64,000 nucleotides of DNA from Pseudomonadota bacterium (lineage in GTDB: Bacteria > Desulfobacterota > Desulfarculia > Adiutricales > JAGVGV01). Of the stretch, positions 22,609-49,571 are shown in pieces; within the stretch, counting starts at the first letter, position 1; each line of letters starts with the position of its first letter. Under the pieces are notes generated by a model. It had not been told where the DNA came from. It saw nothing but the letters and a program-made list of their open reading frames with translations, and made no database searches. The position numbers and the translations under genes are program-made. The stretch is from assembly GCA_043806915.1 (NCBI GenBank), contig JAZDGM010000024.1, positions 31,240 through 95,239 on the forward strand, in the 5' to 3' direction.

Positions 22609-25035
22609 ATGAACTGGCGTGGTCTTGGAACAAAAATAGTTGGATCCGGCCTAGCGTTGATTGTTTTCACCCTAGCCCTGGTCCTGGCCATCGTCTGGTA
22701 TAAAACCGGAACGCTCAAGGAACAGATCACTTCAAAACTGGAAGAGGACGCCGTCAAGGATGTTTCGTCCCTGACCCTAAGCCTTTATCAGCGGGCCCAA
22801 GCCCAGTTCGAAATTGTCGAGGACAAGCTGACTTGCGACCTCAATGTCGCCCGGAAAACCCTGGAACGGCAAGGGGGCCTGTCCTTTAATTCCGCCGACA
22901 AGGTCGCCTGGCGGGCGGTCAACCAGTATACCCAAAAGTTAGAGCAGGTGGAGCTGCCCCAAATGACCCTGGGCGGTCGGCCGCTCGACGCTTCTCGGAG
23001 CTTCCAGGACCGCCTGCCGGTGGTCGATGAAGTCCGGGAATTGGTCGGCGCCACTTGCACCGTCTTTCAGCGCCTGAACGAGGAAGGCGACATGCTGCGG
23101 GTCCTGACCAACGTCCCCGCGAAGGACGGAACCAGGGCCGTCGGGACGTACATCCCCCGGACCAACCCCGACGGCCGGGAAAATCCGGTCATCGCCGCGG
23201 TCCTGAAAGGCCAAGCCTATTCGGGCCGGGCCCTGGTCATGGACAAGTGGCATCAAGCCATCTATGAGCCTCTCAAGGACGAAGCCGGCCGGGTGATAGG
23301 CGTGTTGTATGTGGGCGTGGACCTGGACAAGGAACTGGCCGACCTTAAAAACGACCTGGCGGGCTATGTGATCGGCCGCACCGGCTATTGCTTCGTCCTG
23401 GACAGCGAGGGGCGGTATGTCGTTTCCCAAAACAACCAACGCAACGGCGAGTTGATCTGGGACGTCCGCGACGCCGACGGTCGCTTCATGGTCCAGGACA
23501 TTATCCAAGCCGCGATCAAGGCCCCGGCCGGCGAAATCAGCCTGATCCGGTATTCCTGGTCGGACCGCGCGCAAGACGCCCCCAGGCAAAAAGTCGCCGC
23601 CTCCGTTTATTTCCAGCCGCTGGATTGGGTCATCGGCGCCGGGGTCTATGAGGACGAACTGAACGAAACCGCCAAGGGAATAGACGCCTCGGCCCAGGAG
23701 GCGTTGCTCTGGATCGTGGCGGCCGCGGCGGCCGTCCTGATCCTCGGCGGGCTGGGCTTGTTCATTTTTTCCCGTCGCATCACCGGACCGATCTTGCTCC
23801 TGGCCGAGCTTTCCCGGATGTTTTCCGGCGGGGAAATGGAAATTTCCGCCCGGGACAAGAAAGAAATAGAAAAAATAAGCCGCCGCCCGGATGAACTCGG
23901 GGTGATCGGACGGGCCTTTGAAAAGCTGATGCTTTATTTCCAGCAAAAGTCAGGGGAAGCCGAGCGGATCGCCGAGGGCGTACTGGACCTGGACGTGGAA
24001 TTCGCCTCGGCCAAGGACGGTTTGGGAAACGCCTTCCGCGGCATGACCCGGCGACTTAACCAGGCCCTGTCCGAAGTCCGGGAATCCGCCGAGTTGAACG
24101 CCGCGGGCAGCCTGGAAATACGGCAAGCCAACAGGGCCCTTTCGCAGGGCGCCTCCGAGCAAGCCTCCGCCCTGGAGGAAATTTCCAGCTCCATGGTTGA
24201 AATGACCGACACCACCCGGCAAAACGCGGGCACGGCGGCGGAAGCCAAAAAGCTCATGAACGAGACCCGGGGCGCCGCCGAGGACGGCTCGAAAAAAATG
24301 GCCCGCCTGGTTGAAGCCAATTCCGCCATCAATGCGTCCAGCCGGGAAATAGCCAAAATCATCAAGACAATTGAAGGCATCGCTTTCCAGACCAACCTCC
24401 TGGCCCTGAACGCCGCCGTGGAGGCGGCCCGGGCCGGCAAGCACGGCAAGGGCTTCGCCGTGGTGGCTGGAGAGGTCCGGAACCTGGCCGGAAGAAGCGC
24501 CAGGGCCGCCCAGGAGACCACGGCCCTGATCGAGGCCTCCATCGCCAATATCGAGCAGGAAACCACCGCCGTTTACCAGACCGCCGGCTTCCTGGACGCC
24601 ATTGTGGAACGCGTCAACAAGGCGGGTCAGTTGGTGGAGGAAATCCACCGCGCCGGCCAGGACCAGGCCGACGGGATACTCCAGATCACCCAGGGCCTGG
24701 AACAGATCGAGTCCGTGACTCAAAAAAACCTGGCCGTCGCGGAACAGACCTCTTCCGCGGCCGAGGAACTGACCCGGCAGGCGGCCGTGGTCAAGGAACT
24801 GATGGCCCGGTTTCAATTAAAGGACGGTGAAAACGGCGCCGGCCGGGCGCCCCTAGCCCGGGTGGACGACAACCTGTTCCTGCCCAACGCGGGGCCGGGT
24901 CCCGCCGGGCTCGCGCCCGGTCGGGCCGAGGCCTTGAAGGGCGACCGGTTCAAGCGACTCGCCCGCGGGGAAGGAGCCGAGCCCGGAGCGTTGGAGATTT
25001 TTGAGAATCAAGGACGGTCCGGAGGGCGTAATTAA
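22609..25035 (+). CDS. Methyl-accepting chemotaxis protein with large periplasmic Cache-like sensor
   Basis: Two TM helices flank a roughly 330 aa periplasmic domain. A HAMP region follows, then the conserved signalling hairpin [39 protein letters not shown]. Confidence 0.9.
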
Positions 25036-25066
25036 GGTTTCGGCCGGCGGCGCCTTGGGTTAAACT

Positions 25067-25117
25067 GGGGAAGCTGGAGCTTCCCCGCCCGGGTCCCCAA
25101 GCTAACGATTGGGAACC
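25067..25117. repeat. REP-like double hairpin (P2 25067-25086, P1 variant 25092-25117) 3' of the MCP gene
   Basis: GGGGAAGCTGGAGCTTCCCC followed by GGTCCCCAAGCTAACGATTGGGAACC. This is the same two-hairpin module seen at 21.0 and 48.95 kb. Confidence 0.75.
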
Positions 25118-25252
25118 AGCCCTTGAGGCTAGACCGCCGCGCCAGGGGGTTCGGCCGGCGGGCGCCCCGGTTTGGCTCGGACAAGCCGGCGCGGCGCGGG
25201 TTGATGGCTTTTCCCGACAAAAACTTATTTGGACAAGGGCCGAGGCCGCCGG

Positions 25253-26884
25253 ATGAAACCAGACATTTACCCCGATTTGTTCAACTACGTCTACGGGCCG
25301 GTCATGCAGCCCGGTTCCAGCTCCCATACCGCCGGCCCCTGCCGGGTGGGCCTGCTGGCGGCCGGACTCCTGGGCGAGCCGGTCCGCGACATCCACGTCA
25401 CCCTCGACCCGGCGGGCTCCTTTGCCGGCGCCTTCGGCATCATGGCCGAGGACAACGCCATGATCGCCGGGGCCATGGGCCTGGGGCCCGACGACCAGCG
25501 GCTCTTCGACGCCGGGGCCCTGGCCCGGGCCGCCGGAATCGCCTATCGTTTCGACTTCGCCCCCATCAAGGAAAGCAGTCACCCCAACGCCATGAAATTC
25601 CGCCTGACCGGGCAGGGCGGCCGGCAAGTCGAGCTGGTCGGCGACTCCACCGGAGGCGGCCTGGTCGAGACCAGGTCCATCGAAGGGTTTCCCGTCAGGC
25701 TGGCGGGCGACGCCCACACCCTGCTGCTCAAGGACCCGGATTCGATACTCGGGCCGGAAGCCCTAGCCGGCGTCGCGAGATCAATCCCCGGGTTAATCCG
25801 GGTCGAATCCTTTCGTGAACCCGGCCGGGGCGCCCTCCACGTCTTTTTTTCTTCCCGCCCCATCGCGCCGGCAACCTGGCCGACCGAGGTCCTGGCCCTG
25901 GAAAAACACGGCCTCGACCCCATCCTGCCGGTCATCAGGCCCGAGAATAGAAAACCGCCCCTTTTTTCCACCATGGCGGAATGGAAGGAAGCGGCCGCCA
26001 AAAGCAACTGGTCCCTGGCCCGGGCGGTGGTCCAATACCAAATGGACGCCTCGGGCTGGGACGAAAAACAGGTCAGGGAATACCTGCGCTTCCTAACGGC
26101 CAAAATGCACCGTCAGACCCACGCGGCGTACGAGGAAAACTTGCCGGTTCCCGAAAGCCCCTTCAAAATGGATTACCCCGCCCTCTGGACCAAACACGCG
26201 GCGTCCGGGCGGACCCTATCCGACGGCCTGACCGCCGCCATCATCCGCCTGGCCTACGGCGCGGGCGCGGGCCTTCCCGGGGTCGAAACCGTGACCGGCC
26301 CCATGGGGAGCGGCGGCGGGTATTTATACGCGGCCCTGTACGCGGTAATGAAAGCCCGGCGCTGGGCGGAAGACAAGCTCCCCGACGGCCTGCTGGTCGC
26401 CGGAGGCGTGGGGTTGCTCGCTTTTTTCCGGACCGAACCCACGGGCGAATGCCTGGGCTGCACCGGGGAATGCGGGGTCAACGGGGCCATGGCCGCCGCG
26501 GGCCTGGTCGAGATGGCCGGCGGGACCCCGGACCAAGTGGAAGCCGCGGCGTCCCTGTCGCTGCAAGGGTCCCTGGGCTGGCCCTGCGATCCCATTCCGG
26601 GAGGGTTCGGGCAACCCTGCCGCGGCCGGATCATGACCTCGACCTGCATGGCCCCGGTCTTCGCGGACATGGCCCTGGCCGGCCATCCGGCGGTTTTGTC
26701 CCTGGACGAGGCCCTGGACGCGGCCGACCGCGTCGGCCGGGCCCTGCCGCCGGAGCTTCTATGCACGTCCCGGGGAGGCGCGGCGGCCGCGCCCTCGGCC
26801 CGGGAAAAAGCCCTTGCTTTCAAGAAGTGGTTCGAGGAATCGAGGAAAGCCGGCCGACGGATACCGCCGGGAAACCTGATCTGA
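25253..26884 (+). CDS. Iron-sulfur L-serine-dehydratase-family protein (fused beta and alpha domains)
   Basis: N-terminal GPVMQPGSSSHTAGP (GPSSSHT-type motif). A central ACT-like beta segment. C-terminal alpha-domain Cys motifs (CLGCTGECGVNGAMAAAG ... GWPCDPIPGGFGQPC). Confidence 0.8.
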   Translation: MKPDIYPDLFNYVYGPVMQPGSSSHTAGPCRVGLLAAGLLGEPVRDIHVTLDPAGSFAGAFGIMAEDNAMIAGAMGLGPDDQRLFDAGALARAAGIAYRFDFAPIKESSHPNAMKFRLTGQGGRQVELVGDSTGGGLVETRSIEGFPVRLAGDAHTLLLKDPDSILGPEALAGVARSIPGLIRVESFREPGRGALHVFFSSRPIAPATWPTEVLALEKHGLDPILPVIRPENRKPPLFSTMAEWKEAAAKSNWSLARAVVQYQMDASGWDEKQVREYLRFLTAKMHRQTHAAYEENLPVPESPFKMDYPALWTKHAASGRTLSDGLTAAIIRLAYGAGAGLPGVETVTGPMGSGGGYLYAALYAVMKARRWAEDKLPDGLLVAGGVGLLAFFRTEPTGECLGCTGECGVNGAMAAAGLVEMAGGTPDQVEAAASLSLQGSLGWPCDPIPGGFGQPCRGRIMTSTCMAPVFADMALAGHPAVLSLDEALDAADRVGRALPPELLCTSRGGAAAAPSAREKALAFKKWFEESRKAGRRIPPGNLI

Positions 26885-26990
26885 CCGGGAAGGCCCGGGA
26901 CGCGAGGGCCGCCGATCGAGCGGGGAGGCCCCGGGAACGCTCGGGGCGGCCCCGGGAAAGATACCGGGGGGCGCTGCCGCTCCTGGCCCC

Positions 26991-27998
26991 TTAATCCTCG
27001 CCGAAGCGGCGGCCGCCGATTTCCAGGAAAGTCCCGACGCCCCTCTTCCCGGCTTCCTTTAAAATAAAAGCGGCGGCGGCGATATCTTCCACGGCCAGCC
27101 CCAGGGACTTGAACAGGGTGATTTCCCGGTCGTTTTGGCGGCCGGGTTTGAGGCCGGCCAGGACTTGGCCCAGTTCGCCGACAATATGGCTTTCATCCAC
27201 CAGCCCTTCGTCCCGCGGGATGAGGAAATCGCCGGCCTCGGCCACAAGCGCTTCCTTTTTGTCCGCGTATAGCCTGGCTTTCAGCACGCAGTTGGAGTCG
27301 AGCTCCCGGGTCTGGGGCCGAAAGGCGCCCACCGCGTTGATATGGGCGCCGGGCGCCACCCAGTCTCCCGACAAGACCGGCCGGGCGGCGGAAGTGACCG
27401 TGCAGATGATGTCGGCCCCTTCGACCGCTTCCCGGGCCGAGGGGACCGCTTCGACCGTCAACCCGCGTTTCCGGGATTCACGCCGGGCGAAACTGGCCGC
27501 GTTCTCGGGATTGCGGCTGAAAACCCGGACCCGCCGGATGTCCCGGACCAGCATCATGGCTTCGAGGTGAGCCGCGGCCTGGGCGCCGGACCCGAGCAGG
27601 GCCAGGTCCCCGGCCCCGGGCCGGGCCAGGGTCCGGGTCGCGACCCCGGATACGGCCGCGGTCCGGATGGCGGTCAAGGCCGTGGCGTCGACAATGGCCC
27701 GAAGCAAGCCATGGCCGGCCTCGAACAAAAGCACCACCCCGATGTGGGAATCGTGGGGCCCGCCCTCGTTTTTCGGAAAAGCGGAAATGACCTTGATCCC
27801 CATGGCCTGGAGGTCGTCCGCGTAACCGGGCATCCACCCCATGATGCTCTCGCCGTCGGGCAGGACGATTTTTGATCTCAAGGGCATGATAACGCCCCCC
27901 CGGGCCATCCCTTCCAGAGCCTCGGCCATGACTTCCAGGCAGGAGGCCATGGGCAGAAGCTCACGGACCTGATTCTGGTCCGCGATCAGGACTTCCAT
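26991..27998 (-). CDS. Ornithine cyclodeaminase / mu-crystallin family NAD(P) enzyme
   Basis: Family-typical length (335 aa) and Rossmann segment LALLGSGAQAAAHLEAM. Last gene of the corrinoid operon. Confidence 0.85.
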   Translation of the reverse strand: MEVLIADQNQVRELLPMASCLEVMAEALEGMARGGVIMPLRSKIVLPDGESIMGWMPGYADDLQAMGIKVISAFPKNEGGPHDSHIGVVLLFEAGHGLLRAIVDATALTAIRTAAVSGVATRTLARPGAGDLALLGSGAQAAAHLEAMMLVRDIRRVRVFSRNPENAASFARRESRKRGLTVEAVPSAREAVEGADIICTVTSAARPVLSGDWVAPGAHINAVGAFRPQTRELDSNCVLKARLYADKKEALVAEAGDFLIPRDEGLVDESHIVGELGQVLAGLKPGRQNDREITLFKSLGLAVEDIAAAAFILKEAGKRGVGTFLEIGGRRFGED

Positions 27999-28025
27999 AA
28001 TTTGCCTCCCGGTTTCACCGCGCCC

Positions 28026-29453
28026 TTATTTCTTTTTAAGAATGTATTCGATTTCGGACTTGACCGCCTCGTCCAGTGGCGCCGGCTGGTGCGCTTCCAT
28101 GACGGCGATGGTTTTGTCCTTGAGGCGCTTGCCCAGGGTCGGGCCGCCCTTGGACAGCCAGCGTTCCTTCCGGTCCCGGTTGAACAGGGTCGGCTGCCAG
28201 AGCCGGCGGAAATTCTTGTACGTGTGTTCGGCGGTCATGTAGTTGCCGCCGGGGCCGATCAGGTGAATCTGGTCCAGGGCCATGGATTCCTCGTCAAAGG
28301 AAATCCCTTTTTCGAAGGTCCGCATCATGTCGATGCATTCGTCGGCGAAAACGATCAGCTCGGGGGAAGTGGTCAGGCCGGATTCCATGTACCCCACGTC
28401 GTGGGCCAGGTGCTCTCCCGTCAAGAACCCCATCATAATGGTCGTGGCCGCGTCCGAGGCCGCCTGTTCGTCCATGTTATTGCTGTCCGTGTGCCCGGCG
28501 TACCCGAAGTGGGGCAAGCGGTAATACCGGCCCATGTCGGCCGCCGCCGCCCGGGCCAGCATCCATTCCGGGGCGTTGTACACGCTGATGGAGGTCCGCA
28601 TGTCCATGTGATGCAGGCCGTTGCCGTACATGAAGGGCGCGCCGGCGCGCTTGAGCTGGTGGATGACGATGCTCGAAAGCACCTCGGCGTTGCCCAGGGC
28701 CAGGGCGCCGGACAAGGTCACGGGCGCGGCCCCGCCCATCATGGGCGAGGGCTGATGCACCACGGGCACGGCCTTCTCGGCGGTGAACAGGAGTTTTTCC
28801 AGGGAATCCCTGGGCTGCACCAACGGGGTGGTCATCTGGCTGTAGCTGAGCAGGTTGGGGTTGAGCCGGAGGTTATCCTCGCCGCCGGCCGCCGCCGCCA
28901 TGGCGTAAATAGCCTCGCAGTCGGCCCGGTTGTCGGCGATAAAAACAATGGGCTTGGCCGTGTATTCCAGCATCAGGGCGAACTGGGTCTTGAACCGGTC
29001 GTGCTCGGGAGTGTCGGACGGGGCGCCCATGGACATGCAGAAATCGATCCGGGGCAGGGCGTCGACCAGCCGGATGCAGTCCTTGATCTCGCTGGTGGTG
29101 AAGGGCCGATGCTTATCGGTCTTGGGGTCCAGGTAATTGGCGCAATCCGAACCCGTGCCGAAATGGACTTCCCCCTCTTCCAGCCGAATCGCCGCCTCGT
29201 TCCCGCCCCGGCGGCAGAGGACCAGATGGGACGGCGCCTGGCGCAAGGCCCATTCCACCAGGTTGGCGGGCAGGAAGACCAGGGTTTCGTCCTTGATCAC
29301 CGCGTCGGTTTGTCTCAGCAGGTTCAAGGCCTCGGGGTGATGAACGCGAACGCCGGTGCGCCGCAGTATCTCCAAGGAAGCGCGATGAACGAACGCGCAT
29401 TGTTCCTCGCCGAGGAGACTGAATTTGGCCTTGGCCTCGGGAATTTTCGACAT
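28026..29453 (-). CDS. MttB-superfamily methyltransferase, non-pyrrolysine type (paralog 1)
   Basis: 475 aa uninterrupted ORF showing the MttB family pattern (EEQCAFVHRASLEILRRTGVRV..., HFGTGSD, GGAAPVTLSGAL, NYMTAEHT). No internal TAG. Co-operonic with the corrinoid protein and the pterin-binding methyltransferase. Confidence 0.88.
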   Translation of the reverse strand: MSKIPEAKAKFSLLGEEQCAFVHRASLEILRRTGVRVHHPEALNLLRQTDAVIKDETLVFLPANLVEWALRQAPSHLVLCRRGGNEAAIRLEEGEVHFGTGSDCANYLDPKTDKHRPFTTSEIKDCIRLVDALPRIDFCMSMGAPSDTPEHDRFKTQFALMLEYTAKPIVFIADNRADCEAIYAMAAAAGGEDNLRLNPNLLSYSQMTTPLVQPRDSLEKLLFTAEKAVPVVHQPSPMMGGAAPVTLSGALALGNAEVLSSIVIHQLKRAGAPFMYGNGLHHMDMRTSISVYNAPEWMLARAAAADMGRYYRLPHFGYAGHTDSNNMDEQAASDAATTIMMGFLTGEHLAHDVGYMESGLTTSPELIVFADECIDMMRTFEKGISFDEESMALDQIHLIGPGGNYMTAEHTYKNFRRLWQPTLFNRDRKERWLSKGGPTLGKRLKDKTIAVMEAHQPAPLDEAVKSEIEYILKKK

Positions 29454-29532
29454 TACTTCCTCCTTGCGTCATCCTTGGGCCGGAATGCGGCCGCCGGCGA
29501 ATGTGTTTTCAAGGGCTAGGGGAGCGGATGAA

Positions 29533-30663
29533 TCAGTCCCGGTCCATCTTCCCGGCCAGGTCCCGGTAGCGCCGGGCGGCCCGTTCCACCGCCTCGGGGT
29601 TCAATTGTATTCCCAACCCCGGCCCGGACAAAAGCCCCAGACAACCGTTTTTCAGGACCAAGCCCGGGGCCGCCAACAGGTCCTCGGCCAGCAACTGGTG
29701 CATGATCTGGTTGCCCTCGGTCAGATTGGGGACGGTCAGGGCCGCGTGGTGCTGGGCCAGGTCGGTGACGCCGGAAACCGACTGCCCATGCAGGCAGATG
29801 GACAGGCCGGCCGCCTCGGCGACGGCCGCGGCCTTGCGAAAAGCCAGCAACCCGCCGACCTCGTGGATTGATAAAACCAGGACGTCGGCGGCCCGGCGAC
29901 GGCAGATTTCATAGACGTCCTGAATGGTGAAAACCCCCTGGTCCGCGGCGATGGGGACCCGGCAGGATTCCTTGACCTGCTTGAGCGCGGCCAGGCTCCG
30001 GGCCGGGGTCGGCTGTTCGATGAACTCCGGGTCGAAGCGGGACAGCAGATTGATCATGCGGATGGCGGATGCGGGGTCCCAGGCTTCGTTGGCGTCCAGG
30101 CGCAGCCGGCGGGCGCCGATCACGGACCTGACCGCCGCGACGTTCTCCAGGTCCCGGGCCTCGCCCCGGCCGACTTTCAGATAAATGACCGAATGGCCGG
30201 CCGCGACCGCGGCCGCCGCCGACGCGGCCAACTCCTCGGCCGTGTCGCCCTGGGGAAAGCCGAAATAGTCCACCTCGGACCGAAAGGCCCCGCCCAGCAA
30301 CTGGTAGACCGGGCGGCCCGCCGCCTGCCCAATGACGTCCCACAGGGCCATTTCCAGCCCGGCCAGGGTCAGGGCCGCCAGCCGGGGCAGGTCGTTGAAC
30401 CCGCCCAGATGGCGGGCCGACCACATCAGGTTTTCGATATCAAAGGGAGACCGGCCGATCAAACCGGGGATGATCGCTTTCAGAAGCCCCAGGGCCCCCG
30501 TTCCGGGCGCCGGGGCCGTGGATTCCCCCAGCCCGACCAAGCCCTCGTCCGTTTCCACCCGGATGAGCAACACGGCCGCGCCATGGTCGACCCGGCCCGC
30601 CCAGTGATAGGGCTCCCGAAAATCAAGGAAGAGAGGAACAGGTTCGATCGCCGTTATTTTCAT
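29533..30663 (-). CDS. Enolase-superfamily enzyme (mandelate racemase / muconate lactonizing family)
   Basis: N-terminal capping domain plus a barrel with metal-ligand motifs RLDANEAW, FIEQP and IAADQ. The Lys usually found before the VGG motif appears replaced (LSIHEVGG), so subgroup and reaction are unassigned. Confidence 0.85.
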   Translation of the reverse strand: MKITAIEPVPLFLDFREPYHWAGRVDHGAAVLLIRVETDEGLVGLGESTAPAPGTGALGLLKAIIPGLIGRSPFDIENLMWSARHLGGFNDLPRLAALTLAGLEMALWDVIGQAAGRPVYQLLGGAFRSEVDYFGFPQGDTAEELAASAAAAVAAGHSVIYLKVGRGEARDLENVAAVRSVIGARRLRLDANEAWDPASAIRMINLLSRFDPEFIEQPTPARSLAALKQVKESCRVPIAADQGVFTIQDVYEICRRRAADVLVLSIHEVGGLLAFRKAAAVAEAAGLSICLHGQSVSGVTDLAQHHAALTVPNLTEGNQIMHQLLAEDLLAAPGLVLKNGCLGLLSGPGLGIQLNPEAVERAARRYRDLAGKMDRD

Positions 30664-30694
30664 CCCAGGCGGGCCCCCTCGTCCGGCGCCGGGC

Positions 30695-31492
30695 TCAGCC
30701 GGGCAGCCGTCCGGCCCGAAAGGCCTTCAGATATTTCATGCAATAATCGTCGCGACCGGCCAGGGCCTCGGCGGCGATAATGCCCGTCATCATCTTTTCA
30801 TCCAGGGGGTTGACGATGGCCCCGTCCAACCCCTTGGCAATGGCCATCATCATGAAGGTCTGATTCAAAAATTTCCGTGAAGGAAGTCCAAATGAAATAT
30901 TGGACAGGCCGCAGGCGGTGTGAATGCCCGGATAACGACTCCGAATCTGTTCCACGGCCTCGAGAAATTCCCGGCCGAAGGAATTGTTGACGCTGACCGG
31001 CTGCACCAGCGGGTCCACGAAAATATCGTCCAACTTCACGTTGCTTTGAACCAGGGCGTTGACCAGCTTGTCCGCGATGCGCAGCCGGTCTTCCACGGTC
31101 TGGGGCATGCCCTCGTCGCTCATGCACAAGGCGATGACCTTGAAACCGGAACCGGCGACAAGGGGCATCAGCTTGTCGAAGCGGTCTTTTTCGAGGGAAA
31201 TCGAGTTGATCATGGGGGCGCCCCGGTGGACGGACAACCCGGCCTCGATGGCCTGGGGGTTAGGGCTGTCCAGGGCGCACGGCTTGTCCGTGACCGCTTG
31301 CACGTTCTCGACCAGCCACTTCAGGTATTCGGGCTCCTGGTGGACGAACACCCCGGCGTTGACGTCGATGAAGTCCGCGCCGGCCTGGGCCTGGTCAAGG
31401 GCCGTCTTCCTGATATAGTCGGCGTCCTGGGCCGAAATCGCCTGGCCGATGGCTTTTCGGCTGGCGTTGATCAATTCTCCGATAATAATCAT
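30695..31492 (-). CDS. Methyltetrahydrofolate:corrinoid methyltransferase (pterin-binding, MtgA/AcsE/MtrH-like)
   Basis: MIIIGELINASRK, DFIDVNAG, INSISLE, GLSNISFGLP: pterin-binding barrel motifs. Start taken at the ATG at 31492. Confidence 0.85.
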   Translation of the reverse strand: MIIIGELINASRKAIGQAISAQDADYIRKTALDQAQAGADFIDVNAGVFVHQEPEYLKWLVENVQAVTDKPCALDSPNPQAIEAGLSVHRGAPMINSISLEKDRFDKLMPLVAGSGFKVIALCMSDEGMPQTVEDRLRIADKLVNALVQSNVKLDDIFVDPLVQPVSVNNSFGREFLEAVEQIRSRYPGIHTACGLSNISFGLPSRKFLNQTFMMMAIAKGLDGAIVNPLDEKMMTGIIAAEALAGRDDYCMKYLKAFRAGRLPG

Positions 31493-31628
31493 GTCGCGTC
31501 TCCGGCGCCAACCTCGGACCAGGAGCGGCAAGACGCCTTTCCGCTCCCCCGGCCGGGTCGGCTGAAATGAATCGCTCCCAAAACGGGCGGCGGAGGCGTC
31601 CCGCCCGGCCCGCCTCGAGGCGCGGAAA

Positions 31629-32261
31629 TCAGCTCAACATGCCCTTGGCCAGTTTGACCGCGGAACCGGCGTCGGTGGAAAAACCGTCCGCGCCGATCTC
31701 GTCGGCGTAGGCCTGGGTGACGGGCGCCCCGCCCACCAGGATTTTCACCTTGTCCCGCAGGCCGGCCGTCTTGACGGCCTCGATGGTGGCTTTCATCATC
31801 GGCATGGTCGTGGTCAAAAGGGCCGACAGGCAGATCAGGTCCGCATGCCTGGCCTGGGCCTGGCGCACGAATTCCTCGGGAGCGATGTCCACGCCCAGGT
31901 TATGCACTTCCAGGCCCGAGCTTTCCAGCATCATGGCCACCAGATTCTTCCCGATGTCGTGCAGGTCGCCCTTGACCGTGCCGATGACCACCCGGCCCCG
32001 AACCCCGGCCCCGCCCTCGCCCAGCAGGGGCTTGAGAATTTCCACCCCGGTCGCCATCACCTGCGCGGCCATCAGGACCTCGGGGATGAACATGTCCCCG
32101 TTCTCCATCTTTTCGCCGATAACGTCCATGCCCGGGATAAGACCCTGGGCCAGTATCTCCCCGGCCGAAACGCCGGCGTCCAGGTCCCGTTTGACATAGC
32201 CGGCCAAAACGTCCCTGGCCCCATCCATAAGCGCCTGCAAATACTTCTCCTTATCGACCAT
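31629..32261 (-). CDS. Corrinoid (cobalamin-binding) methyl-carrier protein
   Basis: B12-binding signature GDLHDIGKNLV (DxHxxG), plus SALLTTTM and ILVGGAPV. 210 aa, like MtgC/MttC-type proteins. Confidence 0.9.
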   Translation of the reverse strand: MVDKEKYLQALMDGARDVLAGYVKRDLDAGVSAGEILAQGLIPGMDVIGEKMENGDMFIPEVLMAAQVMATGVEILKPLLGEGGAGVRGRVVIGTVKGDLHDIGKNLVAMMLESSGLEVHNLGVDIAPEEFVRQAQARHADLICLSALLTTTMPMMKATIEAVKTAGLRDKVKILVGGAPVTQAYADEIGADGFSTDAGSAVKLAKGMLS

Positions 32262-32296
32262 TTCAGCCTCCTGGTATTAAATGGCGTCCATTGCCC

Positions 32297-32457
32297 GCGC
32301 GTTTTCGAAACGCGGTCCGGTTCGTTTACGGTCAAGCCCCGGGCCTTTTTTCCGGTTGTTCCAGCCCTTGTCGGGGCGGCTCGCGGCTCGTTTTTTTTCG
32401 CTTGACATGGTCAGGCCTTGACTGTATGACTATACTTGTATAGACGATATGTCAAGC
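32297..32457. promoter_or_regulatory. Divergent control region with palindromes (candidate HutC/GntR operators)
   Basis: CGCGTTT-tcg-AAACGCG at 32297-32313. GCTTGACAT at 32400-32408 is paired with ATGTCAAGC at 32449-32457. These enclose TGTATGACTATACTTGTATAGAC, which contains GTAT-N4-ATAC and GTATAGAC elements. TTGACA and TATACT hexamers are also present. Confidence 0.35.
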
Positions 32458-32582
32458 AAAAAACAAATACCTCCCCCCGCCGAAAACTTTCGAAAACAAC
32501 GGCCGGCGGAGGTCCTTCAACCGACTCGGCGACGCGAGGGGTCGACTTCGACCCGGGGCGTTTTTCGGAAAAGAGCACAGCC

Positions 32583-33377
32583 ATGGACCTTAATTCCCAA
32601 AACTTTTCCCGAAAAATCGACGACAGCCCGCTCCCCTTGTACCAAAAGCTGAAAAGCCTGATTGCCACCCGCATCCAAAAAAAGGAATGGCTGCCGGGCC
32701 AGCAGATACCATCCGAGGCGGAATTCGTCGAAACCTATGGCATTTCGCGGATGACGGCCAGCCGGGCCCTGCGGGAGCTGACCTCCGAGGGGTACCTGGT
32801 CAGGGTCCAGGGAGTGGGCACCTTCGTGGCCAGGCGCAAGCCCAAGGCGGATATGCTGCAAATCCGCAGCATCGCCGACGAAATCAGGGAACAGGGCGGC
32901 CTGTATTCCAACCGGGTGGATGTTCTGGTGGAGGAGCCTGCTTCCGAGCCGGTGGCCGAGGAGATGGAAATCGCCCCCGGGGAAAAAGTCTATCACAGCA
33001 TCATCGTGCATCTGGACCGGGGCGCGCCCATCCAGATCGAGGACCGCTATGTCGGCGTCGACATCGCCCCCGAATATATCCGGCAAAATTTCACCCGGAT
33101 CACGCCGACCCAGTATCTACTGGATATCGCCCCTCCGGCCGAGGTGGAGCATCTCCTGGAAGCGATCCTGCCGGACAAGAAGACCATGAAGCTCTTGAAG
33201 ATCGGGCCTCGCGAACCCTGCCTGGTGCTTCATCGGCGCACCTGGACCGCGGGCCGGGTGGTCACCTCGGTCAAGATGATCTATCCCGGCTCCCGGTACC
33301 GGATCGGCGGTCATTTCCGGCTCGACGAGTCCGGCCCCGCCGGTTCCGGGCCGCGCGGGTTTTCCTTCATTCCATGA
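32583..33377 (+). CDS. GntR-family transcriptional regulator, HutC subfamily (UTRA effector domain)
   Basis: wHTH segment PLYQKLKSLIATRIQKKEWLPGQQIPSEAEFVETYGISRMTASRALRELTSEGYLVRVQGVGTFV plus a UTRA-sized C-terminal domain. Lies 19 nt upstream of the hutH-like gene. Confidence 0.85.
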   Translation: MDLNSQNFSRKIDDSPLPLYQKLKSLIATRIQKKEWLPGQQIPSEAEFVETYGISRMTASRALRELTSEGYLVRVQGVGTFVARRKPKADMLQIRSIADEIREQGGLYSNRVDVLVEEPASEPVAEEMEIAPGEKVYHSIIVHLDRGAPIQIEDRYVGVDIAPEYIRQNFTRITPTQYLLDIAPPAEVEHLLEAILPDKKTMKLLKIGPREPCLVLHRRTWTAGRVVTSVKMIYPGSRYRIGGHFRLDESGPAGSGPRGFSFIP

Positions 33378-33396
33378 AAAACCGGAGGAACAGATA

Positions 33397-34926
33397 ATGA
33401 ATGCCATTATTCTCGGCGTCGACGGCATGACCATCGAGGACCTGGTCGCCATCGCCCGGCGCGGGGCGAAGGTCCAGGCCTCGCCGGAAGCCGTCCGCCG
33501 CATCGTTGAAACCCGGCGGCTGGTGGACCAATGGGTGGACCAGGGCCGGGTCATCTACGGCGTCACCACCGGCTTCGGGGCCCTGAGCGGGGTCACGATC
33601 TCCAAGGAAGACACGGGCAGGTTGCAATACAACATCCTTTTGAGCCATTCGGCCGGAGTGGGCGCCCTGTTGGACGAGGAATCCGTGCGGGCGATCATGG
33701 CCCTACGGATCAAGGACATCGCCCGGGGACATTCCGGGGTGCGGTTGGAAACCTTCAACCATCTGATCAGGCTTCTCAACGCCGGAGTGGTCCCCTGCGT
33801 GCCGGAAAAGGGCTCGGTCGGCGCCAGCGGAGACCTGGTGCCCCTGGCGCACCTGGCGCTCCCGCTCATCGGCGAGGGGGAAGCCTTTTATCAGGGCCGA
33901 CGCCTCGGCGGCCGGGAAGCCCTGCGAGCCGTGGGGCTGGAACCGCTGCGCCTGACCTCGGCCGAGGGGCTGGGCTTGCTCAACGGCACTCAATTCATGG
34001 GCGGCCTCGGCGGGCTGGCCGTGCACGACGCGGGCCTTCTTTGCAAGCACACGGACATCGCCGCATCCCTGAGCCTGGAAGTGCTCATGGGCAGCCGGAC
34101 GGAATTCGACCCCAGAATCCAGCGGGTCCGCCCCCACCCCGGCCAGGCCGCGGCGGCGGACAACATGCTGCGCCTAACCCAGAACAGCGAAATAATCTCC
34201 TCCCACAAGGACTGTTCCCGGGTCCAGGACGCCTATACCCTGCGCTGCTCCCCCCAGGTGCATGGGGCCAGCCACGACGCCATCGAATACGCCCGGCGAG
34301 TGCTGGAAACCGAGATTAATTCGTCCACCAACAACCCCCTGTTCTTCCACGAGGAAGGCGATTTTCTCCTGGGCGGCAACTTTCACGACCAACCCGTGGG
34401 CCTGGCCATGGATTTCCTGGGCATCGCGGTCGCGGAACTGGCCAACATTTCCGAACGCCGGGTCGAGCGCCTGGTCAACCCCATGCTCAGCGGCCTACCG
34501 GCCTTTCTGGTGAGCGAGGGCGGGCTTAACTCGGGGTTCATGATCGCCCAGTACACGGCCGCGTCCCTGGTTTCGGAAAACAAGGTCCTGGCCCACCCGG
34601 CCACCGTGGACTCCATCCCCACCTCGGCCAACAAGGAAGACCACGTTTCCATGGGCGCCATCGCGGCCCGCAAGGCCAGGCAGATAGTGGAAAACACGGA
34701 AAACGTGCTGGCCATAGAACTGCTCTGCGCGGCCCAGGCCATGGACCTGTTCACCAACATGAAGCCCGGCGAGGGGTCCCTGCGGGCCCACCAGGTCATC
34801 AGGGAAACCGTGTCCCATTTGGACGAGGACCGCCTGTTGGCCAGGGACATCGCCGCGGTCAGGGCCTTGATCAAGTCGGGCCGCCTGCTGGAAGCCGTGG
34901 AGGAAACCGTGGGTCCCTTGAATTGA
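33397..34926 (+). CDS. hutH: Histidine ammonia-lyase family enzyme (MIO-type)
   Basis: MIO-forming triad in GSVGASGDLVPLAHL. 509 aa, full-length aromatic amino acid lyase architecture. Confidence 0.88.
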   Translation: MNAIILGVDGMTIEDLVAIARRGAKVQASPEAVRRIVETRRLVDQWVDQGRVIYGVTTGFGALSGVTISKEDTGRLQYNILLSHSAGVGALLDEESVRAIMALRIKDIARGHSGVRLETFNHLIRLLNAGVVPCVPEKGSVGASGDLVPLAHLALPLIGEGEAFYQGRRLGGREALRAVGLEPLRLTSAEGLGLLNGTQFMGGLGGLAVHDAGLLCKHTDIAASLSLEVLMGSRTEFDPRIQRVRPHPGQAAAADNMLRLTQNSEIISSHKDCSRVQDAYTLRCSPQVHGASHDAIEYARRVLETEINSSTNNPLFFHEEGDFLLGGNFHDQPVGLAMDFLGIAVAELANISERRVERLVNPMLSGLPAFLVSEGGLNSGFMIAQYTAASLVSENKVLAHPATVDSIPTSANKEDHVSMGAIAARKARQIVENTENVLAIELLCAAQAMDLFTNMKPGEGSLRAHQVIRETVSHLDEDRLLARDIAAVRALIKSGRLLEAVEETVGPLN

Positions 34927-35025: not shown

Positions 35026-36474
35026 ATGAACCCCGATGAATTTGGATTCAACCCGACCCTGACCTTCCTGTCGGAAGAAGATAAGAAGAAGCTCCATGGG
35101 GGCGTATTGAGGCTTTTGGAAGAGACCGGCATGGCCCTCCAACACGAGGAAGCCCTGAAGCTGCTCGGGCGGGCCGGCGCCGACGTCGACGACCCGGAAC
35201 ACGTCAAAATCCCCTCCAAGCTGGTGGAACAAGCCCTCAAAAGCGCTCCCCATAACATCCCGGTCTACAATCGGGAAGGCGAATTGGCCATGGACCTGGG
35301 CGGCCGCCGGGCCTATTATGGGACCGGGTCGGACCTCATGTCCCATGTGGACGCCAAGACCCTGGAACGCCACCGCACCACCATCGAGGACATCCGCCGG
35401 TCGGCCCTGGTCTGCGACGCCCTGCCCAACATCGACTTCATCATGTCCTTCGCCCATCCCCACGAAGTCGACCCGCACCGGTCCTATTTGGAAAGTTTCC
35501 GGGCCATGCTGGAATACTCGGTCAAGCCCATCGTGAACACCGCCGAAAACCGCCGGGACCTGGAAAAGATGTGGGAAGTCTCCGCGGTGCTGCGGGGCGG
35601 GGAACAACAGTTGCGGGACCAGCCCTACACCATTCAGTACGACGAACCCATCAGCCCGCTCAAGCACCCCTTCACCAGCGTGGACAAGCTGATTTTCTGC
35701 GCCCGCAAGGGCATGCCGGTGATTTATTCCCCCGCGCCCATCGCCGGCTCCACCGCGCCCATCACCATCGCGGGGCATGTGCTGCAGGGCCTGGCCGAGT
35801 CGTTCTTCGGCCTGGTGGTCCACCAGCTCGCGGCCGAGGGCGCCCCGTTCCTGATGGGCATCGGCCCCGCCGTCCTGGACATGTCCACCGGTCAATGTTC
35901 GTACAACGCGCCGGAATACCTTCTATCCCTGGCGACCATGGTGGAAATGACCAAATATTACGACCTGCCCAACTGGGGGTACGCCGGCACCAGCGACTCC
36001 CAGATTCCGGACATGCAAGCTTCGTTTGAAGGCGGCCTGCTGACCTTCATCTCCGCCCTGACCGGATCGAACCTCAACCACGACGTGGGGTATATCGACT
36101 TCGGCCTGACCGGCAGCCTGGAATGGATCGTGATCATGGACGAGATCATCAGCCAGATCAGGCGGATTCAGAAAGGCGTCCCCATCACCGAGGAAACCAT
36201 GGCCCTCCCGGTCATCGCCGAGGCCGGCAAGACGGGTCATTTCCTGACCCATCCCCACAGCCTGAAACACCTTCGTTCCGTCCAGTGGCGGCCCAAGTTG
36301 ATGAACCGCCTGGGGTATGAAAAATGGACCAAGCTCGGCGGGGTCGGGCTGCTGGAAAAAGCCGGCCGGCGAGTGGATGAAATTCTGGCCGGATACCAGG
36401 TCAAGCCGCTCGACCCGAGCGCGGCCCAGGAAATCCAAGCGCTTTGCGCCGCATTCACCGGACTGGAGAAATAA
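35026..36474 (+). CDS. MttB-superfamily methyltransferase, non-pyrrolysine type (paralog 2)
   Basis: 482 aa uninterrupted ORF, alignable by eye to paralog 1 (YYGTGSDLMSHVD.., ALPNIDFIMSF, GSTAPITIAGHV, HFLTHPHS). Embedded between the hutH-like gene and the ABC importer genes. Confidence 0.88.
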   Translation: MNPDEFGFNPTLTFLSEEDKKKLHGGVLRLLEETGMALQHEEALKLLGRAGADVDDPEHVKIPSKLVEQALKSAPHNIPVYNREGELAMDLGGRRAYYGTGSDLMSHVDAKTLERHRTTIEDIRRSALVCDALPNIDFIMSFAHPHEVDPHRSYLESFRAMLEYSVKPIVNTAENRRDLEKMWEVSAVLRGGEQQLRDQPYTIQYDEPISPLKHPFTSVDKLIFCARKGMPVIYSPAPIAGSTAPITIAGHVLQGLAESFFGLVVHQLAAEGAPFLMGIGPAVLDMSTGQCSYNAPEYLLSLATMVEMTKYYDLPNWGYAGTSDSQIPDMQASFEGGLLTFISALTGSNLNHDVGYIDFGLTGSLEWIVIMDEIISQIRRIQKGVPITEETMALPVIAEAGKTGHFLTHPHSLKHLRSVQWRPKLMNRLGYEKWTKLGGVGLLEKAGRRVDEILAGYQVKPLDPSAAQEIQALCAAFTGLEK

Positions 36475-36600: not shown

Positions 36601-38136
36601 ATGAAGAAGAAACTGGTATTGTCGATTTTTCTGGTGGTCTTGCTGGGTCTTGGGGCGCCGTTCACGGTTTTCGGCGCGTCCGACGGCAGGTCCGGCGGCA
36701 TCCTCAAGGTCGGCTGCCAACCCACCAACAACCTGGACCCCCATTTTTCAGCCTCCATTTCGGACATTCTGCTGCTGGAGCAGGTTTATCACCATTTGAC
36801 CTTCATCGACGCCAAGAACCAGGCGGTCCCGGACCTGGCGGCATCCTGGGAATCGGCGGACGGCAAGACCTGGGTCTTCCACCTCAAGGACGGCGTCAAG
36901 TTCAGCGACGGCCGGCCGGTCACGTCCAAGGACGTCGTCTTCAGCTACAACCGGCTGCGGGACGCCAAGGTCGGCGCCCCCACGGTCAAGCTGTATGAAA
37001 ACGTGACCGCCATCGAGGCCGTGGCCCCCCTGACCGTCAAATTCACCCTGGCCCGGTCCAACCCCGAATTTCCGGCCGACACGGGCGACTACCACGCCTG
37101 CGTGATCCCGGACGGGACCAAGGACCCGGCCAAGGAACGCCTCGGCAGCGGCCCGTATGTGGTCGCGGCGGTGTTCCCGGAGGACCGGATCGTCCTGAAA
37201 AAGAACCCCCACTTCGCCATGAAGGACGCGGACGGAAGCGCCCTGCCCTATTTAGAGGAAATTCACCTGGTCTTTTCCCCGGACATGGGCGGACAGGTTG
37301 AGGCCCTGCGCGGCGGCGAATTGAACTTCGTCGGCGGCCTGACCACCGAATTCGCCGCGACCGTGGAAAAGGACCCCAACGCCAAGGTGCTTAAAAACGC
37401 CTCCAACATGCACTGGATGATCCACATGCGCTCCGACCAGGGGCATGTGGCGGCGGATAACCGCGTTCGCCAGGCCTTCAAGCTGGCCACCGACCATACG
37501 GCCATCATCAACGCCGTCCGGCCCGGCCTGGCCGCTCCCGGCAACGGCTTCAGCCCGGTGGGACCGGCCTACGGCGAGTACTATCTCAACCAGCCTCCGG
37601 CCACCGACATCGAGAAAGCCAAGGCCCTCCTGGCCGAGGCCGGATACGCCAAGGGCCTCAAGATCGACTTGGTCGCCCAGAACCAGTTGGACGTCATTCC
37701 CATCGCCACGGTCTGGAAGGACCAACTGGCCAAGATCGGCGTGACCGTCAACATCCAGGTCGTTCCCACGGACCTGTACTACGGTGAAGGCGAAAACAGT
37801 TGGCTTAAATGCGATTTCGGCATCACCGACTGGGGCACCAGGGCCACTCCGGTCACCTATTACAACCTGGCCTACACTTCCGACGGTCCCTGGAACGGCG
37901 CCCACTGGTCCGATCCCGAGTTCGACGCCCTGGCCCACCAGGTCGACAGCGAGATGGACCAGGCCAAGCGCGTGCAGTTGTACCACCAAACCCAAAAAAT
38001 CCTGATCGAGCGCGGTCCCGTCATCAACGCCTATTTCGAAATGGCCGTGGCCGGCGTCAGCTCCAAGCTGGAACAGGTGGAACTGGCCTCCGACTGGGCC
38101 CGCACCCGCTTCTGGAACAGCTACTTCAAAAAATAA
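36601..38136 (+). CDS. ABC transporter substrate-binding protein, family 5 (peptide/opine/nickel type)
   Basis: Signal peptide MKKKLVLSIFLVVLLGLGAPFTVFGA and family 5 N-terminal pattern (LKVGCQPTNNLDPH..., DLAASWESADGKTWVFHLKDGVKFSDG). Confidence 0.9.
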   Translation: MKKKLVLSIFLVVLLGLGAPFTVFGASDGRSGGILKVGCQPTNNLDPHFSASISDILLLEQVYHHLTFIDAKNQAVPDLAASWESADGKTWVFHLKDGVKFSDGRPVTSKDVVFSYNRLRDAKVGAPTVKLYENVTAIEAVAPLTVKFTLARSNPEFPADTGDYHACVIPDGTKDPAKERLGSGPYVVAAVFPEDRIVLKKNPHFAMKDADGSALPYLEEIHLVFSPDMGGQVEALRGGELNFVGGLTTEFAATVEKDPNAKVLKNASNMHWMIHMRSDQGHVAADNRVRQAFKLATDHTAIINAVRPGLAAPGNGFSPVGPAYGEYYLNQPPATDIEKAKALLAEAGYAKGLKIDLVAQNQLDVIPIATVWKDQLAKIGVTVNIQVVPTDLYYGEGENSWLKCDFGITDWGTRATPVTYYNLAYTSDGPWNGAHWSDPEFDALAHQVDSEMDQAKRVQLYHQTQKILIERGPVINAYFEMAVAGVSSKLEQVELASDWARTRFWNSYFKK

Positions 38137-38242
38137 TCCGTCGCGGCGCCCCGGCCCGGCAAGCGAGTCGGCCCGGGGCTTCGCCGGAAAAATTTCCAAG
38201 CTGAAACGAACCGGGCCGATATTCCCAAGGGGGTTGCCGCAC

Positions 38243-39112: not shown

Positions 39113-39114
39113 TT

Positions 39115-47035: not shown

Positions 47036-47143
47036 GCGCGCCTCCCCGCGGCCATGACGCCGGCGCCCAAGCCCGAGAGGGGAGACCCCGGCCGGGGAAG
47101 CGCCGGGGCCCTCGTTTAGCCAAGGCGGAGATGGTGAGCCCGA

Positions 47144-47857: not shown

Positions 47858-47957
47858 GGGCGGGTTGGGCCGTCTCGGCCTAACCCACCGGTTTACCAGC
47901 TTGTTTTTGTAGGTTTTTTTCTTCGGCCCGATTAAAATTGCCGAATAAGGCCATCCG

Positions 47958-48335: not shown

Positions 48336-48369
48336 AAACCCCGCCGAGCCGGGCCGAGGACTGATCTGT

Positions 48370-48738: not shown

Positions 48739-48874
48739 TTTAAGGCCTCCAATTTTTTTACTAATTTTCTTTAAACAAGGCCAAAAAATCAAGAAAAAAA
48801 TCGCAATTCCTTTTTCCCTGTCAGCGGCCAGGTGAAAATGCAAGGAAAAGGGCCAAATGAAAATGAGTGCGGCT

Positions 48875-48926
48875 GTTTCCCAAGCTAGAGCCTGGGAAAC
48901 AGATAATATTGGATGTCTTTTAAAAA
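48875..48926. repeat. P1-variant hairpin plus ATATTGGATGTCT box (direct copy of 21027-21073)
   Basis: GTTTCCCAAGCTAGAGCCTGGGAAACagataATATTGGATGTCT here, versus GGTTCCCAAGCTAGAGCTTGGGAACCagcggATATTGGATGTCT at 21.03 kb. Confidence 0.7.
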
Positions 48927-48949
48927 AGTCTCCCACGAAACCATTTGCT

Positions 48950-49206: not shown

Positions 49207-49218
49207 CTGGAGCTTCCC

Positions 49219-49545: not shown

Positions 49546-49571
49546 AGAAAGCGCGGTAATGCTCCGCTTGG

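Follow-up and report, generated by a model that had tools for sequence, protein, structure and literature searches.

The 64-kb stretch of contig JAZDGM010000024.1 analysed here (the window) carries on its minus strand a five-gene operon, positions 26991–32261, which joins a corrinoid-dependent methyl-transfer system to an enolase-superfamily enzyme (ENO) and an ornithine cyclodeaminase/mu-crystallin-family enzyme (OCD). We read these five genes, with a probability of roughly 45%, as one arm of an oxygen-independent catabolic island of about 20 kb for an N-methylated amino acid, probably one derived from histidine. This reading is carried by comparative gene context, which shows ENO, OCD and an Fe-S serine-dehydratase-like protein (SDH-like) as a conserved set that appears to travel with one clade of the MttB family and with histidine utilization (hut) genes across phyla. 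No description of the association of ENO, MttB and OCD was found in the literature searched. The initial annotation of this operon had suggested an oxygen-independent counterpart of the route in which HpbD epimerizes proline betaine and hydroxyproline betaine ahead of demethylation; this is partly supported here, in that the pathway logic holds and the HpbD identity and proline-betaine specificity do not. The genes of the operon, in the order of transcription, are:

31629–32261, minus strand: corrinoid protein (Pfam B12-binding_2 and B12-binding; MtgC/MtbC-like, below cut-offs; His-on motif DLHDIG, i.e. DxHxxG)
30695–31531, minus strand: pterin-binding methyl-corrinoid:tetrahydrofolate (THF) methyltransferase (NF005719 366.8 bits, cut-off 259; Pterin_bind 83.5 bits)
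29533–30663, minus strand: ENO, enolase superfamily (MR_MLE_N 55 bits, MR_MLE_C 171 bits)
28026–29453, minus strand: MttB1, non-pyrrolysine MttB family (PF06253 276 bits; 475 residues)
26991–27998, minus strand: OCD/mu-crystallin enzyme (PF02423 275 bits, cut-off 24)

Coordinates and family matches confirm the five genes, minus-strand order and short gaps given by the initial annotation. Counted from the listed start codons, the gaps are 97, 31, 79 and 27 nt; the gap of 136 nt given earlier fits a later start of the pterin-binding gene, because its family match begins at residue 14. A terminator scan of positions 24800–33600 returned 9 terminator-like sites, compared with 10.2 expected from shuffles, and no convincing terminator between the operon genes; co-transcription of all five is plausible from this layout. 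No cobalamin riboswitch or other RNA was found near the operon, the sole Rfam match in the window being a tRNA.

Fifteen loci with an ENO orthologue (ENO ≥58% identical), from Thermoleophilia, other Actinomycetota and unclassified metagenome-assembled genomes (MAGs), were compared for neighbours within 10 kb with a control of 145 loci carrying distant enolase-superfamily genes, which was re-used from scans with short ENO motifs (EMALWD.., MALWD..). Those scans were saturated by generic enolase-superfamily sequences and yielded few true orthologues (loci L007–L009 and L093–L095); the neighbours at L007–L012 and L093–L097 were assigned by crude calling of open reading frames (ORFs) and tblastn. 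The resulting counts are listed with Fisher p-values that overstate independence, as some of the 15 loci come from related MAGs:

MttB: 10/15 ENO loci, 2/145 control loci, p = 8e-11
OCD: 10/15 ENO loci, 0/145 control loci, p = 1e-12
SDH-like: 9/15 ENO loci, 0/145 control loci, p = 3e-11
HutH: 5/15 ENO loci, 0/145 control loci, p = 4e-6
Xanthine-dehydrogenase family or AFOR: 7/15 ENO loci, 3/145 control loci, p = 1e-6

This enrichment bears out ENO and OCD as genuine, conserved companions of the MttB/corrinoid system, whose adjacency is not due to chance. MttB1-type genes (56–63% identity) directly follow ENO at L003 and L087–L090, and genes of the type of MttB2, the second MttB of the window, are found with hut genes or ENO at L093 and L001 (50–53% identity), L093 beginning with the MttB2 orthologue. 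At L008 and L093 hutH directly adjoins ENO, and L009 has the order hutU-korAB-sucCD-hutH-hutI-ftcD-ENO-OCD-SDHlike-XDH, the last being a xanthine dehydrogenase gene. Kor/Suc or POR/ACD genes lie in the same operon at L003, L008, L009 and L093, and subunits of the xanthine-dehydrogenase family flank the ENO-MttB1 pair at L003, L087 and L089. Genes of the MmgE/PrpD family stand immediately upstream of or near ENO at L002, L087, L088, L090 and L092; together with these, an octopine-dehydrogenase-family gene at L088 hints at polycarboxylate- or opine-like intermediates.

More distant relatives of ENO in Proteobacteria (44–50% identity) resemble the solved protein 2PGW, and their neighbours differ. 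On pSymA of Sinorhizobium meliloti, genes for an MttB-family protein, a GlxA regulator, an M24 peptidase, an isochorismatase and a glycine-betaine-type ABC transporter are grouped with the 2PGW gene and an Ldh_2 oxidoreductase gene. In Paracoccus and Pseudaminobacter (L005, L012) the ENO relative is followed by a heterotetrameric sarcosine-oxidase-like soxBDAG set, and at L096 by a Rieske oxygenase alpha subunit and SoxB/D. An N-demethylase gene of some type is present at 5 of the 11 2PGW-like loci compared with 6 of the 145 controls (p = 2e-4). By these counts the ENO family travels with N-demethylation as such, the type of demethylase being swapped between lineages. The earlier statement that MttB replaces an oxygenase is therefore fair at the level of gene context (Rieske at L096, soxBDAG-like at L005, L012 and L096), whereas the word "anaerobic" is not established for the organism. 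The literature searched contained nothing relevant that links ENO or OCD to MttB, or MttB or corrinoid proteins to hercynine or ergothioneine, and nothing on the function of 2PGW.

By its domain matches and modelled fold, ENO is a member of the enolase superfamily, and its closest relatives place it in a widespread, uncharacterized family typified by 2PGW, a structural-genomics deposit for which no functional study was traced in the literature searched. ENO falls below the cut-offs of all curated NCBIfam models; the best is muconate cycloisomerase TIGR02534 with 167 bits (cut-off 335), and all dehydratase models are far below theirs (cis-3-hydroxy-L-proline dehydratase, 96.6 bits with a cut-off of 500). 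The comparison that the initial annotation had proposed with members of the mandelate racemase (MR) and muconate lactonizing enzyme (MLE) subgroups was made with an AlphaFold2 model (pLDDT 92.6), which gave TM-scores of 0.93–0.95 to 2PGW and 0.84–0.95 to solved superfamily members. 2PGW (359 bits, 48% identity) is first in both the PDB sequence list and the Foldseek list, followed by dipeptide epimerases, N-succinyl-amino-acid racemase (NSAR) and muconate cycloisomerases at 26–31% identity, and overall similarity in the fold search places ENO with MLE-subgroup members. More than 1300 homologues were retrieved at E ≤ 1e-30, mainly from soil and peat metagenomes and MAGs, the best 120 being 62–74% identical.

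Among 26 ENO orthologues the metal ligands D190/E216/D241 are invariant, as are K163, S265, E268, H292, N318/Q319 and R24. K163 sits in a YxK motif (Y161-L-K163) altered from KxK, and S265, replaced by Gly in 2PGW, occupies the position of the strand-6 lysine. The absence of a lysine before the VGG motif (LSIHEVGG), pointed out earlier, is correct: where the muconate cycloisomerase 3CT2 reads ALKIAKNGG, ENO reads VLSIHEVGG, with Ser-Ile-His-Glu in place of Lys-Ile-Ala-Lys. A muconate cycloisomerase identity is disfavoured on these grounds (167 vs. 335 bits, YxK and not KxK, S265 for the strand-6 lysine). In the model, K163 is at the end of predicted strand 2, H292 at that of predicted strand 7 and E268 just past strand 6, a candidate mandelate-racemase-like pattern. 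R24 belongs to the 20s loop and is matched, in a gap-free alignment, to Arg24 of L-Ala-D/L-Glu epimerase, a residue that binds a carboxylate of the substrate (bioRxiv 10.1101/2022.05.01.490185); the match is a lead and not proof, and would suggest that the substrate of ENO carries a second anionic group, as a glutamate-like compound does.

Catalysis by HpbD uses the lysines K164 and K266, and the betaine is bound by W312 and D293; in the published proline-betaine pathway HpbD is required for the D-isomer only, and there is no OCD-type step (PMC3950512). Contrary to the analogy drawn in the initial annotation, ENO is not an HpbD orthologue as judged from sequence. No HpbD entry is found in the best 60 PDB sequence matches of ENO (lowest 85 bits) or the best 50 Foldseek matches. 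K164 has its counterpart in K163, and K266 corresponds to the invariant Ser265. With positions counted from the metal ligands, H292 and V311/P312 of ENO stand where HpbD has D293 and W312, and no Trp is present in ENO residues 300–330. Two HpbD candidates from Rhodobacteraceae loci (L050, L075) were dehydratase-like with a PHSGS motif and were dropped.

The second skeleton-processing candidate, OCD, is best read as an enzyme of the ketimine-reductase and not the cyclodeaminase type, with a putative imine/iminium oxidoreductase role. Scores and cut-offs in NCBIfam equivalogs are 306 and 417 bits for PRK08618, 250 and 322 for the reductase of pyrroline-2-carboxylate (Pyr2C) and piperideine-2-carboxylate (Pip2C), and 150 and 350 for ornithine cyclodeaminase; the PDB ranking runs from the Pyr2C reductase 6T3E (250 bits) through CRYM (~200) to ornithine cyclodeaminase (118). 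The sequence has the Rossmann motif GSGAQA and R41, K69 and R112, which we take to be the Arg/Lys/Arg carboxylate-binding triad. Convergent with the operon is the gene of the third conserved partner:

25229–26884, plus strand: SDH-like, a fused beta+alpha Fe-S L-serine-dehydratase-like protein of 551 residues (SDH_alpha 113 bits; sda_beta and sda_alpha below cut-offs)

A reading of this protein as a canonical L-serine dehydratase was rejected, the scores being far below the equivalog cut-offs; its homologues at 9 of the 15 ENO loci are 52–58% identical. Just upstream of the gene, positions 22609–25035 encode a Cache_3-Cache_2 methyl-accepting chemotaxis protein that could sense the substrate of the island.

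Methyl transfer in the window is shown by homology: in the predicted path, an MttB-type enzyme moves the methyl group of the substrate onto the corrinoid protein in its Co(I) form, and the pterin-binding enzyme moves it further to THF. The PF06253 match of MttB covers 26–495 of the 500 profile positions and the ORFs are uninterrupted (475 residues in MttB1, 482 in MttB2) and thus without a pyrrolysine codon. The window has a single corrinoid gene and a single gene for a THF methyltransferase, and tblastn found no second corrinoid copy in it; the sole corrinoid protein presumably serves both MttBs. Having no carriers of its own, MttB2 would need to borrow those of the ENO operon, and this sharing would make the ENO arm and the hut arm one functional unit.

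MtgB contacts glycine betaine by cation-pi interaction with Y97 and F356 and at the carboxylate with R312 and H348, and R312 is reported to be conserved in all characterized MttB members, including the proline-betaine enzyme MtpB (PMC13080624). At the positions of Y97/R312/H348/F356, MttB1 aligns with S/F/H/G and MttB2 with S/W/H/G. The alignment was extended to 18 cluster paralogues (MttB1, MttB2 and 16 from L001–L003, L087–L090 and L092), all 18 of which are without equivalents of R312, Y97 and F356. Most have Ser for the Tyr; Phe, Trp or Met stands in for the Arg and Gly or Ala for the Phe, and the His is retained. R312 is missing from the S. meliloti MttB-like protein as well. By these residues, MttB1, MttB2 and the cluster paralogues are uncharacterized clades. 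Since the MtgB ligand residues are missing, glycine betaine is excluded for the window MttBs and was rejected as a reading, and proline betaine is not favoured as a candidate substrate. At least four motif types are seen at the R312 position of the paralogues (P[NHI][WF]G[YN]AG, PNWGYAG, PIFGLTG and PFMGTAG), with up to three per locus, and sequential demethylation or several substrates are both possible. In the Thermoleophilia MAG of L001 (positions 3688–5064), a non-pyrrolysine MtmB-family homologue lies between a corrinoid gene and the SDH-like/AFOR/OCD/ENO genes.

The divergent hut arm of the window is arranged as follows:

32262–32435: divergent control region of 174 bp between the corrinoid gene and hutC
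32436–33377, plus strand: HutC-type repressor (TIGR02018 282 bits, cut-off 220; true start probably later than listed)
33397–34926, plus strand: HutH histidine ammonia-lyase (TIGR01225 681 bits, cut-off 539; Ala-Ser-Gly in GASGDL, forming 4-methylideneimidazole-5-one, MIO)
35026–36474, plus strand: MttB2, second non-pyrrolysine MttB, inside the hut operon
36601–42137, plus strand: ABC importer (SBP_bac_5, OppC-like permease, fused double ATPase, OppB-like permease)
42240–44273, plus strand: HutU urocanate hydratase, long form of 677 residues (TIGR01228 428 bits, cut-off 375)
44356–45966, plus strand: FtcD glutamate formiminotransferase-cyclodeaminase fusion (TIGR02024 394 bits, cut-off 221; FTCD_C domain), loading a one-carbon unit on THF
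45974–47035, plus strand: 353-residue protein with a C-terminal 2x[4Fe-4S] domain and 280 N-terminal residues without assignment (homologues in L088, L089 and L092)

HutC, HutH, HutU and FtcD each score above the equivalog cut-off, and this homology shows the arm as a predicted canonical MIO-dependent histidine route of HutH, HutU and FtcD under a HutC regulator. A reading of the lyase as an ergothionase or histidine betaine trimethylammonia-lyase (HBTL) was rejected, the ASG motif being present and the protein scoring as HutH. The proline/hydroxyproline direction taken earlier finds no such footing: neither putA nor other proline or hydroxyproline catabolic genes occur in the window, the adjacent and functionally dependent operon is hut, and the MttBs are without the Arg of MtpB. 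Within the control region, GTATGACTATAC (32424–32435) is the only GTAT-N4-ATAC palindrome of the window. Nested in a larger inverted repeat (CTTGAC...GTCAAG), the palindrome is a candidate HutC/GntR-type operator, possibly for both arms.

An importer of the same type adjoins ENO/MttB at L001, L087–L090 and L092. The PDB relatives of its binding protein are peptide, opine and nickel binders (60–123 bits) and are uninformative on specificity. Relative to the hutU model of 545 positions, HutU is extended at its N-terminus by about 90 residues. The Fe-S protein of about 350 residues recurs by ENO/MttB (window 45974–48335; L092 11305–13511; L088 13361–14365; L089 7457–8464) and is followed in the window and L092 by genes for HypB/CobW-like and HypA nickel chaperones, which in the window belong to the hut operon; at a guess, the 353-residue protein might supply electrons to the corrinoid system, act as its activase or belong to a nickel enzyme.

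In the pathway that we propose, the feedstock would be a methylated histidine derivative, with hercynine the simplest candidate and a ring-methylated histidinium the alternative. ENO would use Mg2+ bound by D190/E216/D241 to stabilize an enolate. The proton at the alpha-carbon of an N-substituted amino acid would be abstracted by K163 from one side and by H292, paired with E268, from the other. Most probably this would result in a 1,1-proton transfer, that is 2-epimerization or racemization like that by HpbD, though with a Lys/His pair of the mandelate-racemase kind; beta-elimination would be the second choice. OCD would interconvert the N-alkyl amino acid and its imine or iminium, giving without oxygen the free L-amino acid or the 2-oxo acid, with methylamine or dimethylamine released. 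Hercynine is described as widespread in the environment, and its known route uses an MIO-less lyase of the histidine ammonia-lyase family that releases trimethylamine (bioRxiv 10.1101/2025.08.13.670108).

Several points weigh against this proposal. Seven ENO loci with MttB1-type genes have no hut genes within 10 kb and in their place carry genes of the PrpD or xanthine dehydrogenase families; the substrate shared by the loci may accordingly be something other than a histidine derivative. With natural L-hercynine as the substrate, it is not apparent what a racemase would be for. MIO-type HutH requires a free amino group, for which a single MttB step is insufficient, and we know of no precedent for corrinoid demethylation of tertiary or secondary amines without pyrrolysine. 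The imidazolonepropionase gene hutI was absent from the 64-kb window in a tblastn search, the importer is of the SBP_bac_5 type (peptide, opine or nickel) and not a typical betaine binder, and the 15 loci behind the neighbour counts are not independent of one another in phylogeny.

Other assignments of the same genes were weighed. ENO might be a beta-eliminating dehydratase or lyase acting on an N-alkyl amino acid with a beta-hydroxyl or other leaving group, the resulting imine being reduced by OCD; we consider this rather unlikely. The pairing of a dehydratase with an OCD-family enzyme would have precedents in cis-3-hydroxy-L-proline dehydratase with Pyr2C reductase, in EutB/EutC and in BhcB/BhcD, and it would suit both the ENO-OCD adjacency at 10 of the 15 loci and the non-homologous Ldh_2 gene after the ENO relative in S. 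meliloti. The combination of Lys and strand-7 His also occurs in mandelate-racemase-subgroup dehydratases, and there is the weak cis-3-hydroxy-L-proline dehydratase match (96.6 bits against a cut-off of 500). However, SDH-like is already a conserved second dehydratase-like partner, which would leave this role of ENO partly redundant, no abundant beta-hydroxylated N-methyl amino acid is obvious, and the conserved ENO residues fit both chemistries alike. The oxygen-independent copy of the Hpb route favoured by the initial annotation, with ENO as a proline- or hydroxyproline-betaine 2-epimerase ahead of MttB and OCD as a Pyr2C reductase, seems to us unlikely. It is true that the best solved relative of OCD is a Pyr2C reductase (6T3E, 250 bits) and that the 2PGW gene of S. 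meliloti is followed by an Ldh_2 gene, presumably of the second family to which Pyr2C reductases belong, with genes for a glycine-betaine-type ABC transporter and an "Xaa-Pro peptidase family" protein next to it; SDH-like, AFOR or a Mo enzyme, and Kor/Suc could also map onto an oxygen-free route from hydroxyproline betaine to 2-oxoglutarate. But HpbD is not in the top PDB matches, its K266 is Ser in ENO and there is no Trp at the position that spacing assigns to W312; the MttBs are without the Arg of MtpB and other characterized members; the window has hut genes, the recurrent neighbours, and no proline or hydroxyproline catabolic genes; and the published pathway needs HpbD just for the D-isomer and has no OCD-type step (PMC3950512).

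Less likely again is a downstream role, in which ENO, OCD and SDH-like act on a common C5-dicarboxylate (glutamate, an N-substituted glutamate or substituted glutarates) and feed 2-oxoglutarate to Kor/Suc, irrespective of the methylated compound taken in; the substrates of the MttB clade might instead be heteroaromatic cations with an N-methyl group, for instance trigonelline, homarine or methylimidazolium compounds. This is the reading under which the match of the invariant R24 to Arg24 of L-Ala-D/L-Glu epimerase, the place of ENO after ftcD (product glutamate) in L009, the Kor/Suc or POR/ACD genes in the operons of L003, L008, L009 and L093, and the xanthine-dehydrogenase-family subunits flanking ENO-MttB1 in L003, L087 and L089 would make sense; for the heteroaromatic cations one may cite the Trp/Phe/Met that replaces the carboxylate-binding Arg in the MttB clade and the missing MtgB aromatic pair. 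It has no precedent known to us, the step from glutamate to 2-oxoglutarate needs fewer than three enzymes, and 2PGW-like relatives without R24 still associate with N-demethylases. We regard it as very improbable that ENO is a muconate cycloisomerase or acid-sugar dehydratase that merely adjoins methyltransferase genes. Public homologues are named "muconate cycloisomerase" and TIGR02534 is the best NCBIfam match, but at 167 bits against 335, with dehydratase models far below their cut-offs and the strand-6 Lys absent; no aromatic or sugar-acid catabolic genes lie nearby, and the linkage of ENO to MttB and OCD is highly non-random.

Elsewhere in the window, positions 53990–58250 encode a single-chain molybdenum oxidoreductase of 906 residues (Fer2 + Fer2_2 + hammerhead + MoCoBD), which we take to resemble the Desulfovibrio MOP aldehyde oxidoreductase in size and domain order, followed by a DsrC-like protein and a class-V aminotransferase of the cysteine-desulfurase type. 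The LivG-type ABC ATPase of a transporter for branched-chain amino acids, at 13376–14176 (minus strand), is split into ORFs of 131 and 113 residues, suggesting a frameshift, pseudogene or assembly error. Positions 6419–9517 encode a 1032-residue protein in which CheB methylesterase and CheR methyltransferase are fused with a pair of PAS domains, and positions 18342–19517 a 391-residue protein with two TetR_N units in tandem, in a stretch of low GC (0.54 vs. ~0.62 for the window). About 2 kb with a GC of 0.54 (48336–50421) between hypA and two MinD/ParA-like Fe-S ATPase genes gave no confident gene and no Rfam match.

Known MttB systems remove, to our knowledge, one methyl group, and the demethylated product is left unused where studied. 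The island would offer a conserved enzyme set (ENO, OCD, SDH-like and Mo/W oxidoreductases) for oxygen-independent use of the betaine skeleton. It also gives a functional context for the orphan 2PGW and more than 1000 homologues mislabelled "muconate cycloisomerase", and flags an MttB clade with an active site differing from every characterized member. Should hercynine be the substrate, the island would degrade an abundant metabolite of fungi and actinobacteria by a route that, unlike the lyase routes, releases no trimethylamine. In a bolder form, which we put forward as doubtful but worth stating, the 2PGW-type family would be the dedicated skeleton-processing partner of a new MttB clade and, with OCD and SDH-like, would enable complete oxygen-independent catabolism of amino-acid betaines, for example of hercynine to histidine or glutamate, by a route widespread in soil Actinomycetota and other phyla in which the methyl groups are kept on THF and not lost as trimethylamine. 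Such a route would depend on pyrrolysine-free corrinoid enzymes that demethylate non-quaternary amines, or on a redox-neutral amine exchange of the OCD type.

Compared with known systems, the methyl-transfer part of the operon resembles the MtgB/MtgC/MtgA, MtpB, MtcB, MtyB and MthB systems in having an MttB-family enzyme, a His-on corrinoid protein and a methyl-THF-forming methyltransferase with no pyrrolysine codon. It differs from them in that Y97, R312 and F356 of MtgB are Ser, Phe/Trp and Gly in MttB1/MttB2, and in its SBP_bac_5-type importer; no report of a characterized MttB system encoded with an enolase-superfamily or OCD gene was found in the literature searched. HpbD (PDB: 4J1O, 2PMQ; MLE subgroup) has the fold, the three acidic metal ligands and the strand-2 Lys in common with ENO, and its gene adjoins N-demethylation genes for a betaine; it is the likely model for how ENO works. 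Its partner demethylase, however, is a Rieske oxygenase with a flavoenzyme and not MttB/corrinoid. The closest counterpart, 2PGW ("putative muconate cycloisomerase" of pSymA), has K163, E268, H292 and the metal ligands and no strand-6 Lys; in the vicinity of its gene are genes for an MttB-family protein, for a betaine ABC transporter and for an Ldh_2 enzyme of imine-reductase type. It is 48% identical to ENO, has a different 20s loop without R24 and Gly for S265, and comes from an aerobic host; unlike the ENO operon, the neighbourhood shown has no corrinoid protein annotated. Among the nearest characterized relatives, L-Ala-D/L-Glu epimerase (YkfB, 1JPM/1TKK; 134 bits, 28% identity) has R24 in common with ENO but uses a Lys/Lys pair and a DxD for the dipeptide ammonium, where ENO has S265/H292 and GNQ. 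The modules for hydroxyectoine use (EutA/EutB/EutC), BhcB/BhcD and 3-hydroxyproline dehydratase with Pyr2C reductase may be comparable in bringing together a racemase- or dehydratase-type enzyme, a second dehydratase and an OCD-family reductase for reshaping a substituted amino acid. Their partners are not homologous to those of the window, being Asp/Glu-racemase-like and pyridoxal-phosphate enzymes where the window has an enolase-superfamily enzyme and an Fe-S SDH-like protein. The HBTL and ergothionase routes are comparable to our proposal in converting histidine betaines to (thio)urocanate without oxygen, and they show that hercynine is environmentally available. Their lyases have no MIO motif and release trimethylamine, whereas the HutH of the window keeps Ala-Ser-Gly and the methyl groups would go to THF via MttB.

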